64,000 nucleotides of DNA, taken from NCBI GenBank assembly GCA_001938485.1, contig MQRK01221946.1, positions 1 through 64,000 on the forward strand, in the 5' to 3' direction. The DNA is from Girardia tigrina (lineage: Eukaryota). The position numbers and the translations under genes are program-made. Under the pieces are notes generated by a model. The model was not told the DNA's origin, did no database searches, and saw nothing but the letters and a program-made list of their open reading frames with translations. Shown here piece after piece: positions 56,985-58,732 of the stretch (within the stretch, counting starts at the first letter, position 1; each line of letters starts with the position of its first letter).

Positions 56985-58732
56985 CACTAGAACGCTGAAA
57001 CCGGTCATTTGTGATATTTTTAAAATTGTTTTTATCAAAGCGTCTACCTGTAAGACTTTAGGAACTTCATTTTTTTGTGAATTTAAAAACTTTATTTATG
57101 TGAATAAAAATTTTATACTCCAATAACGAAATTTTAATTAGTGAATACACTATAGTTTGGCTGTGTTTATGTCAATATACTTTCAATATACATTTCACCA
57201 CAATGATTATATTAGTGCGCTTTTATTGATTTGTTTATATGTAGGCCTAATTTCAGGGTAAAGGGATGCATTTATATCTAACACTAAAATTTTAAAAGAT
57301 ACAAATAATGATGTACACGAGAAAGACAACTGGTGGGAATAAAATTTCTGCAAGAAATTTCTAAACAGTATTAAAGTTTTCACGAGCCTGCTTAGATAGT
57401 CCATACATTTTAGTTTCGTGCATAATTAGGGTACCTTACTCTACGAAAAGATACCTTTTTATCAACTTCTTGCTTATAAAAAAGCTACGTAATGGGTTCG
57501 GGGAGGCGCTGGGCGTGGGGAGTGCGCTACTGAAGGAGCTGAAGAAGCTGGACGACAAGGGCCTGCTGGTGGAGGTGCAGCTGCTCGAGGGCAAGGTCTA
57601 CTACAGCCTGTCGAACTTGCAGCGCTCGAAGGCAGCGCTGACGTCGGCCCGTATTTGAAAGATTATAGAAAAGCAAACACATTTTTAATAAATAAACTCT
57701 AAATCTGTATTTATCTTCTTTTATTTAGATATGATGAGACGAGCTGCTGCAATGAGGGTCATTCGCCGCTAATGGAATTGTGATTCAGTGGTACCTGAGG
57801 AGGAAATTGATATGAAAATTGATGATGAAAATTGAGATTGATAAAGCTCATAATGAAGAAGGTATAGCAGATTTAGAATCCATATTCTCTTCTGAAAGTG
57901 AAGAAGGCTCTCAAACTGGAGAAATCAAAGAGTTGGAATCTTCGATTTTTTTCAATTCAGAAGAATATGAAAAAGTGACTACTCAACGAGCAATTGAAAA
58001 AGACGGTACTGTGTAGACAAAGATCGACAACTGGCAAAATGCATGAAGAATACCAAACAGAAATTTGTTTACAAAAAATCAAGGTATGAAAGCATTTACT
58101 AAGCAAAAAATTGATTCTCCATTATCGGCTTGGACATTGTTATTTACAGAAAAAAATAGCATTCCTTGTATTAGTGCTGAATCCAACAAAGAAAAACCAG
58201 AAATCATATTGACTTACAATCAAACCAAGACCGGAGTTGACTGTCTAGATAAAATGACTGGCTTATATAGTACGAAACGTGCATCCAGGCGATGGTCCAT
58301 AAGTGTTTTTATGATTTGCTGGGCAAGGCCATTATCAACTCACAAGTTTTTTATCAGGAAGCTGTTGGTCCTATTGTGAGAAAACGATTTCTTATGGAAA
58401 TTGCTAAAGCGGTCTGTGATCCACTTCAGAAGGCTAAAAAGCAAAAAAATGACCGAAATTCGGAGAAAGTCAGAGCGAGGAGAAAACTAACACCATTCCG
58501 TACTTTTGGTTGTGAAAACAAGACTTGCAACGTATGTGATACGTGTGGAAAGAAATTTCTGGTAAACATAATACCAAAGTAAGAGTAGACACTGAAATGC
58601 AGTTGTTATTCACTTTAGATGTGTAGGATATTTTAAATAAAGCTCTTGGTCTTAAAATAAATTATTTACCACCCGGTCATTAATGACCGGTTTCGGCATT
58701 TGAGGGTTGTGACCGGTACTGGCGTTCTAGTT
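56985..58732 (+). mobile_element. piggyBac element with internally deleted transposase
   Basis: TTAA|CACTAGAACGCTGAAACCGGTCA ... TGACCGGTACTGGCGTTCTAGTT|TTAA; acidic N-terminus, KPEIILTYNQTKTGVDCLDKM...YSTKRASRRW, C-terminal Cys motif CNVCDTCGK. Confidence 0.92.
57494..57653 (+). pseudogene. PSMD11: 26S proteasome lid subunit Rpn6/PSMD11 fragment (about 53 codons) inside piggyBac
   Basis: [50 protein letters not shown] matches Rpn6 ([50 protein letters not shown]); nearly all third positions G/C. Confidence 0.93.

Follow-up and report, generated by a model that had tools for sequence, protein, structure and literature searches.

A GC-rich fragment of a flatworm-type Rpn6 gene within a defective piggyBac-like element of Girardia tigrina

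From what source, and by what route, did a GC-rich scrap of a proteasome gene enter an AT-rich DNA transposon? The question is posed by a 64,000-nucleotide stretch of the Girardia tigrina assembly GCA_001938485.1 (contig MQRK01221946.1, positions 1 to 64,000), hereafter referred to as the window, in which a forward-strand frame at 57494–57655 translates into 54 residues without a stop. The portion from 57494 to 57652 encodes 53 residues of the proteasome subunit Rpn6/PSMD11. When the PDB was searched with the fragment, PSMD11/Rpn6 was matched over human residues 143–194 (E 2e-16), which bears out the initial annotation, where the stretch had been described as a stop-free Rpn6/PSMD11 fragment with nearly all third positions G or C (49 of 53 codons). 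Further PDB matches are, as we take it from the entry names, fly and yeast Rpn6. The anchor motif of the fragment is present in all 120 homologues listed (of 221 found) and the alignment is gapless; a Pfam search with the 54 residues did not find the Rpn6 family. Three of the six frames of the insert are open, so that freedom from stops is weak evidence by itself. Clear Rpn6 homology runs from 57497 to 57652, and we place the insert, an internal coding fragment of a flatworm-type Rpn6/PSMD11, at 57492–57653 on the forward strand (162 bp), its left junction being uncertain by several bases (57488–57497). An intron of the human gene, at Gly150, presumably falls inside the stretch that the fragment covers. 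Only 53 of about 400 Rpn6 residues are represented, rather than a full-length frame with a start and a PCI domain, and the open stretch in which the Rpn6 frame lies (57365–57658) holds no upstream ATG. The fragment is not a functional Rpn6 and encodes no product, and the insert is without evident function. A search of the 64-kb window for other pieces of Rpn6, including a parent gene, returned none.

The insert is carried by a defective piggyBac-like element on the forward strand (56985–58732; 1,748 bp including the insert), identified by its ends, its TTAA target sites, and a transposase remnant. Copies of TTAA stand at 56981–56984 and 58733–58736. The left end (56985–57010, forward strand) comprises the terminal inverted repeat CACTAGAACGC and a sub-terminal repeat. 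The right end (58673–58732, reverse strand) comprises an 18-bp palindrome, a sub-terminal repeat, and a terminal repeat whose outermost base is A in place of the C of the left end, with 10 of 11 bases matching between CACTAGAACGC and AACTAGAACGC. For piggyBac-like elements, Bouallegue et al. 2017 (PMC5381638) give the six-base end motif C[CAT][CAT][TGA][TAG][TGA] and name Schmidtea mediterranea among the hosts. The left end, with CACTAG, fits this motif, and the TTAA duplication, the sub-terminal repeats and the related transposase are further likenesses to that family, whereas the copy in the window is internally deleted, frameshifted, and mismatched at its right terminal base.

The transposase relic (57731–58599, forward strand) was pieced together from five hand-chosen frame segments with two in-frame stops and four frame changes between them; its core is deleted near 58155–58180, and about 285 residues of the catalytic core are missing. 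It was matched to the 594-residue transposase of PDB 6x67, which we take to be the T. ni piggyBac transposase, over residues 428–469 (E 1e-5) and weakly over residues 127–142. The match to piggyBat in the PDB had an E-value of 0.77, and the Pfam model DDE_Tnp_1_7 (PF13843) was matched at E 0.0014, below its curated cut-off. The relic is AT3-rich, unlike its cargo, with A or T at 59 of 84 fourfold sites. Thus the element combines a TTAA duplication, terminal inverted repeats with the motif, and family transposase sequence, as a piggyBac-like element should, and lacks the intact transposase with catalytic core that an autonomous one needs; it is very probably immobile. No N runs occur inside the element, no second copy of the element or of the insert was found in the 64-kb window, and a plasmid search with a transposase piece gave no match. 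The fragment had initially been placed in the AT-rich 5′ region between piggyBac inverted repeats, and so it lies: 5′ of the transposase frame, with TTAA at both ends of the element and with element DNA of GC 0.29 and 0.18 on the two sides of an insert whose GC is 0.64.

Both junctions of the insert carry the word CGTA, at 57488–57491 (reading CGTAAT) and at 57650–57653 (reading CGTATT), where it takes in the final Arg codon of the Rpn6 reading frame. The two copies, each a duplicated word or a microhomology, lie 162 bases apart, and removal of one period leaves a seamless AT-rich sequence. Since the right copy is compatible with Rpn6 coding (Arg, then the first base of Thr), the word may be either shared homology or a duplicated target, and the T of the CGT codon, one of only four that end in A or T, may stem from the target. 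The initial annotation had taken a shared CGTA(A/T)T as a sign of microhomology-mediated insertion. CGTAAT and CGTATT are indeed present, but the exact match is only a 4-mer, and when the insert was placed at random in element DNA 20,000 times, an equally long shared word arose in 3%, 15%, and 28% of the trials with tight, medium, and loose junction zones, respectively. We therefore regard the repeat as suggestive only: it would fit repair at a staggered break, without proving it. The insert shows 0 amino-acid changes of the G/C-to-A/T type, whereas an insert of the same age as the decay of the element should have about three. The probability of this outcome is 0.04–0.05 at the point estimate and 0.7 at the lower bound, so that the evidence leans weakly towards a later insertion, into an element already resident, the route that single-copy Pack-TIRs usually take according to PMC8277862.

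The insertion site also coincides with the donor of a candidate intron. A 78-nt stretch on the forward strand (57651–57728) begins with GT and ends with a pyrimidine tract and AG, the acceptor-like sequence standing two bases before the transposase ATG, and may, judging by its sequence alone, be a 5′ intron of the piggyBac transcript. The length of the insert is a multiple of three, and across the candidate intron the Rpn6 frame stays in register with the transposase ATG. A functional Rpn6–transposase fusion was considered for the present sequence and rejected, as there is no in-frame ATG and the transposase frame that starts at the 57731 ATG stops at codon 14.

Composition sets the fragment apart from the AT3-rich coding DNA of the window. 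Its GC3 is 0.92, next to a GC1 of 0.68 and a GC2 of 0.36. In the three exons of the resident C2H2 zinc-finger gene (12361–14260, reverse strand), 190 of 575 synonymous codons end in G or C (0.33; Fisher p 6e-18 against the fragment), so that the sharp difference in codon bias reported at the outset between the fragment and this gene holds. For a truncated, intronless 14-3-3 epsilon relic (33387–33787, forward strand) the count is 37 of 116 (p 2e-14), and in-frame segments of the Tc1, Gypsy, and piggyBac sequences have GC3 values of 0.19–0.38. The contrast is far beyond chance. Within the fragment, A occurs 27 times and T 24 times at positions 1 and 2, but no more than 4 of 52 codons end in A or T; G stands at 34 third positions and C at 14, and 2 of 52 codons end in T. 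Because the enrichment is confined to silent positions, with A and T kept at positions 1 and 2, the bias appears to predate the insertion and to have been built up while the protein was under selection. The same counts rule out that the high GC3 was caused by hypermutation or editing.

A second relic with a similar codon preference lies 18 kb away. The stretch at 39400–39815 (forward strand) is a decayed sequence resembling mitochondrial HSP60, in which 53 of 81 codons end in G or C. The HSP60 relic, called GC-rich in the initial annotation, is thus GC3-rich, but its identity is weakly supported: the best match, to mitochondrial HSP60 in the PDB, has an E-value of 0.004, two of its three frames had no PDB match, and no Pfam family was found. 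It is more decayed than the Rpn6 fragment, with a stop and frameshifts. In an alignment with the human protein, judged by eye, the A>G type also accounts for several of its substitutions at conserved positions (E>G, N>S, K>E). The ratio of G to C at fourfold sites is 22:7 in the Rpn6 fragment, 25:7 in the HSP60 relic, and 53:44 in the zinc-finger gene; the skew towards G relative to that gene has a Fisher p of 0.006 for the two relics pooled and of 0.052 for Rpn6 alone. The 14-3-3 epsilon relic is truncated at its 3′ end, has one stop and one frameshift, and runs into Gypsy gag-like sequence. It is nearly identical to two proteins, P0127 (85 of 89 non-gap positions in the first aligned piece) and P0131, whose match ends at about the place where the relic breaks off. 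Its PDB matches are vertebrate, plant, and yeast 14-3-3 proteins, and the protein-cluster atlas returned generic 14-3-3 clusters.

That two relics with the same G-ending preference lie so close together argues for a common and probably native source, since two transfers would be less simple. Most likely, the host has a GC3-rich, G-skewed class of housekeeping genes (Rpn6, HSP60) beside AT3-rich genes such as those for 14-3-3 and the zinc-finger protein. The GC of the window, 0.288 with N excluded, is close to the 29.9% listed for Schmidtea mediterranea in Table 1 of PMC6739440, a study that includes one triclad, at the GC-poor extreme, and in which GC3 differs by about 40 points between flatworm species, with lineages mixed. 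Counting against a native class of this kind, the literature searched yielded neither a report of GC3-rich genes as a class in planarians nor a description of a GC-extreme housekeeping compartment. A bolder possibility, which we consider rather unlikely, is that the Rpn6 and HSP60 relics are what remains, within an AT-rich flatworm genome, of a second coding dialect, one with more than 90% GC3, a skew towards G, and an A-to-G drift of amino acids. Its source would be either a GC-extreme housekeeping compartment of the host or repeated uptake from a GC-rich flatworm, with piggyBac as landing site or vehicle. If the parent is native, GC3 in the genes of this genome ranges from about 0.3 up to 0.9, with G favoured asymmetrically between the strands, and GC-biased gene conversion or transcription-linked mutation could be tested directly in a flatworm. 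If there is no native parent, the locus would record a rare animal-to-animal transfer of a coding fragment that is not from a transposon.

The lineage of the fragment was examined by comparison with its homologues. The closest is a 397-residue protein, P0002, with which it is identical at 48 of 52 positions, the best of the other 119 homologues listed (120 of 221) reaching 40 of 52. P0002 carries the same three Pfam domains as the named PSMD11 matches, shares diagnostic residues with trematode and monogenean Rpn6, and groups with them in a quick tree of 110 rows (SH-aLRT 97). For a more careful tree, 31 rows were picked from 121. In this tree, the fragment and P0002 form a clade (bootstrap 100, SH-aLRT 87), and six named neodermatan flatworms are its sister group (99/97), a placement in which the fragment fills only 12% of the alignment columns and which long-branch attraction may affect, the branch of P0002 being long (0.83). 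An Rpn6 phylogeny had been proposed initially as a check, and its outcome is this grouping with flatworms. Placement of the fragment inside the insect clade (nine rows) was rejected by the AU test (p-AU 0.017). From its sequence, the fragment would come from a flatworm outside the sampled Neodermata, probably a free-living one, with no finer placement than that. Of the eight Rpn6 proteins measured, P0002 is the most AT-type in amino-acid composition (GARP/FYMINK 0.52, against 0.65–0.95), which suggests that its own gene is AT-rich and was not the template. The insert had no match among plasmids, and 373 pattern matches in prokaryotic genome contigs included no relative of Rpn6.

We hold, with moderate confidence, that the insert is a non-functional, probably single-copy Pack-TIR, in which a scrap of host-lineage Rpn6 was patched into a piggyBac by break repair. 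A piggyBac would have integrated at a TTAA site of an AT-rich flatworm genome and would later have suffered a break in its 5′ non-coding region. The break would have been repaired by copying about 160 bases from a host-lineage Rpn6 template, either the gene or a cDNA, the ends being joined through a brief stretch of common sequence, today present twice as CGTA. The template would already have been strongly G/C-ending at silent sites before it was copied. Other intron-free relics are present in the window, a sign that such scraps are frequent in this DNA.

Processed pseudogenes and templated insertions at double-strand breaks are comparable systems, and the insert shares with them a short internal coding fragment and minimal homology at the junctions, with intron-free relics nearby. 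It has neither a poly(A) tail nor a 3′ UTR and is therefore not a standard target-primed retrocopy. Pack-MULEs favour GC-rich cargo. The capture of gene fragments by Pack-MULE, CACTA, and Helitron elements, reviewed in PMC6431247, likewise places a piece of a host gene, and not a whole gene, inside a DNA transposon; the present element differs in belonging to another superfamily and in carrying a single cargo without sign of amplification or expression. The closest parallel is provided by Tan et al. 2021 (PMC8277862), who report 370 Pack-TIRs in 100 animal genomes and define them by 100–5000 bp of non-TE sequence between the ends of an element, a unique parent in the same genome with at least 90% identity, and exclusion of retroduplicates, which would have lost introns relative to the parent. 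According to that study, most single-copy Pack-TIRs arise by gap filling that is independent of transposition, and breakpoint microhomology was found in 190 of 281 cases, with a median of 2 bp. The 162 bp of non-TE insert (above the lower limit of 100 bp), the internal breakpoint, and possibly the short shared word at the junctions are like a Pack-TIR, whereas a point of difference is that a piece of protein-coding sequence, extreme in its codon bias, forms the cargo; the structural part of the definition is found at this locus, and the parent is not among the 64 kb. Membership is likely, if unproven. PiggyBac carriers account for 8 of the 370 rows in Supplementary Data 1 of PMC8277862 (two from medaka, five from assembly strPur2, and one from zebrafish), so that the earlier remark that capture is less known for piggyBac must be amended, such cases being already catalogued. 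The term "Schmidtea" had 0 matches in 12 supplementary files of the same paper. Trapped gene scraps in animal transposons are thus already known, and the window adds one probable flatworm example; the unexplained GC richness of a coding scrap is the part worth following.

Alternative origins of the fragment have to be weighed against this history. Sense-strand A>G changes alone suffice to produce each of the four differences between the fragment and P0002 (E>G, N>G, I>V, S>G), and three of the four residues so gained are absent from all 120 homologues listed. The probability of an all-A>G pattern under models of in-situ mutation is 3e-5 to 4e-4, for a pattern noticed post hoc; decay in place would be expected to give mostly G/C-to-A/T changes, unlike these four. 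Such a pattern, together with the excess of G over C at third positions, would follow if a native Rpn6 mRNA had been A-to-I edited, reverse-transcribed, and used to fill the break. Editing cannot remove T from third positions, yet hardly any codon of the fragment ends in T, so a GC3-rich parent would be needed anyway. ADAR avoids a 5′ G, and such avoidance is not seen, a 5′ G preceding three of the six changed A against 16 of 35 available A. The comparison of A>G with T>C at positions 1 and 2 gives a p of only 0.064, and P0002 is not the true parent, so that the differences may be ordinary divergence in a lineage drifting towards GC. A drift of the parent gene towards GC explains the pattern more simply, and we consider an edited cDNA patch very improbable indeed. 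If the fragment instead came from a GC-rich flatworm, in a horizontally moved piggyBac or in prey DNA or RNA patched into the break, the AT3-richness of the zinc-finger gene and the 14-3-3 relic, the AT-type character of P0002, from which the fragment departs by changes towards G and V, and the wide spread of flatworm GC3 in PMC6739440 would all be accommodated. The HSP60 relic shows the same dialect, however, with no flanking inverted-repeat pair listed, and would call for a second transfer; the transposase relic, being AT3-rich, is unlike the cargo that it would have brought along. On balance, such a transfer seems unlikely. A more distant donor (vertebrate food, arthropod prey, a protist, a fungus, or a bacterium) is favoured by the contrast in composition only and is extremely improbable, given the identity with the flatworm-grouping P0002, the AU test, the absence of plasmid matches, and the lack of an Rpn6 relative among the matches in prokaryotic genome contigs. 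Of the two sources first proposed, a GC3-rich class of host genes or foreign DNA, the former is supported in the sense of a native lineage, by the HSP60 dialect and the flatworm grouping, and a distant foreign donor is disfavoured.

There are two further explanations. The insert could be a chimera, formed in the library or the assembly, with DNA of a co-sequenced GC-rich flatworm. The assembly is gapped, with eight N runs in the window, and local duplications occur near 14.1–15.0 kb. The element itself is free of N, with coherent piggyBac halves, TTAA sites, and ends; the four bases shared by the junctions are presumably too few for an assembler to join, and contamination by an intact gene could not have produced the HSP60 relic with its frameshifts. 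We consider a chimera very unlikely. The fragment had also been called "packaged", which implies that it moved after capture. In that case, capture by the transposase would have been followed by spread as a multicopy Pack-piggyBac family, with the insert possibly hidden in or spliced onto the transposase transcript. Both ends and both TTAA copies are present, earlier movement in trans is conceivable, and the insert, a multiple of three long, stands at a possible splice donor and in frame with the transposase ATG. Against this, the window holds one copy, the transposase is dead, the two ends differ at one terminal base, no ATG precedes the Rpn6 fragment in its open stretch and the transposase frame is cut short, and the lack of G/C-to-A/T amino-acid changes leans weakly to a late insertion. 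Movement after capture is thus not borne out by the window, and capture followed by spread appears decidedly unlikely.

The remainder of the window consists mostly of transposon remains, with pieces of Gypsy-type integrase and protease, a Tc1-type DDE transposase, hAT, and GIY-YIG sequences; an Rfam search over the 64 kb gave 0 matches. About 280 bp to the left of the piggyBac, a long inverted repeat (53454–54058 and 56101–56703; 328 bp at 98%) encloses 21-bp tandem arrays and resembles a foldback-like element or a palindrome. About 400 bp to the right lies a CpG-dense island (59118–59575; 50 CpG, GC 0.55), which shows no codon periodicity and has no match in Pfam or Rfam. Open frames at 24168–24584 and 47026–47337 (both forward strand; GC3 about 0.5) are possible exons or relics; neither matched a family, and the protein-cluster atlas held nothing for the former. 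The zinc-finger gene has short introns and a CpG observed/expected ratio of 1.47. When one of its exons was compared with 1.84 billion representatives, 21 weak zinc-finger matches were obtained, none at E 1e-10. Its 5′ part is duplicated around the N gap at 14.1–15.0 kb, which is probably an assembly artefact. A Tc1/mariner-type element at 16844–18576 carries inverted repeats of 54 bp (98%), and one stop interrupts its transposase frame. Short ends of a GIY-YIG element, presumably Penelope-like, occur at 20348–21049 (forward strand), with related pieces near 11815, 18795, and 28115–28402, and one of these ends carries a 70-bp hairpin at 20457–20610.
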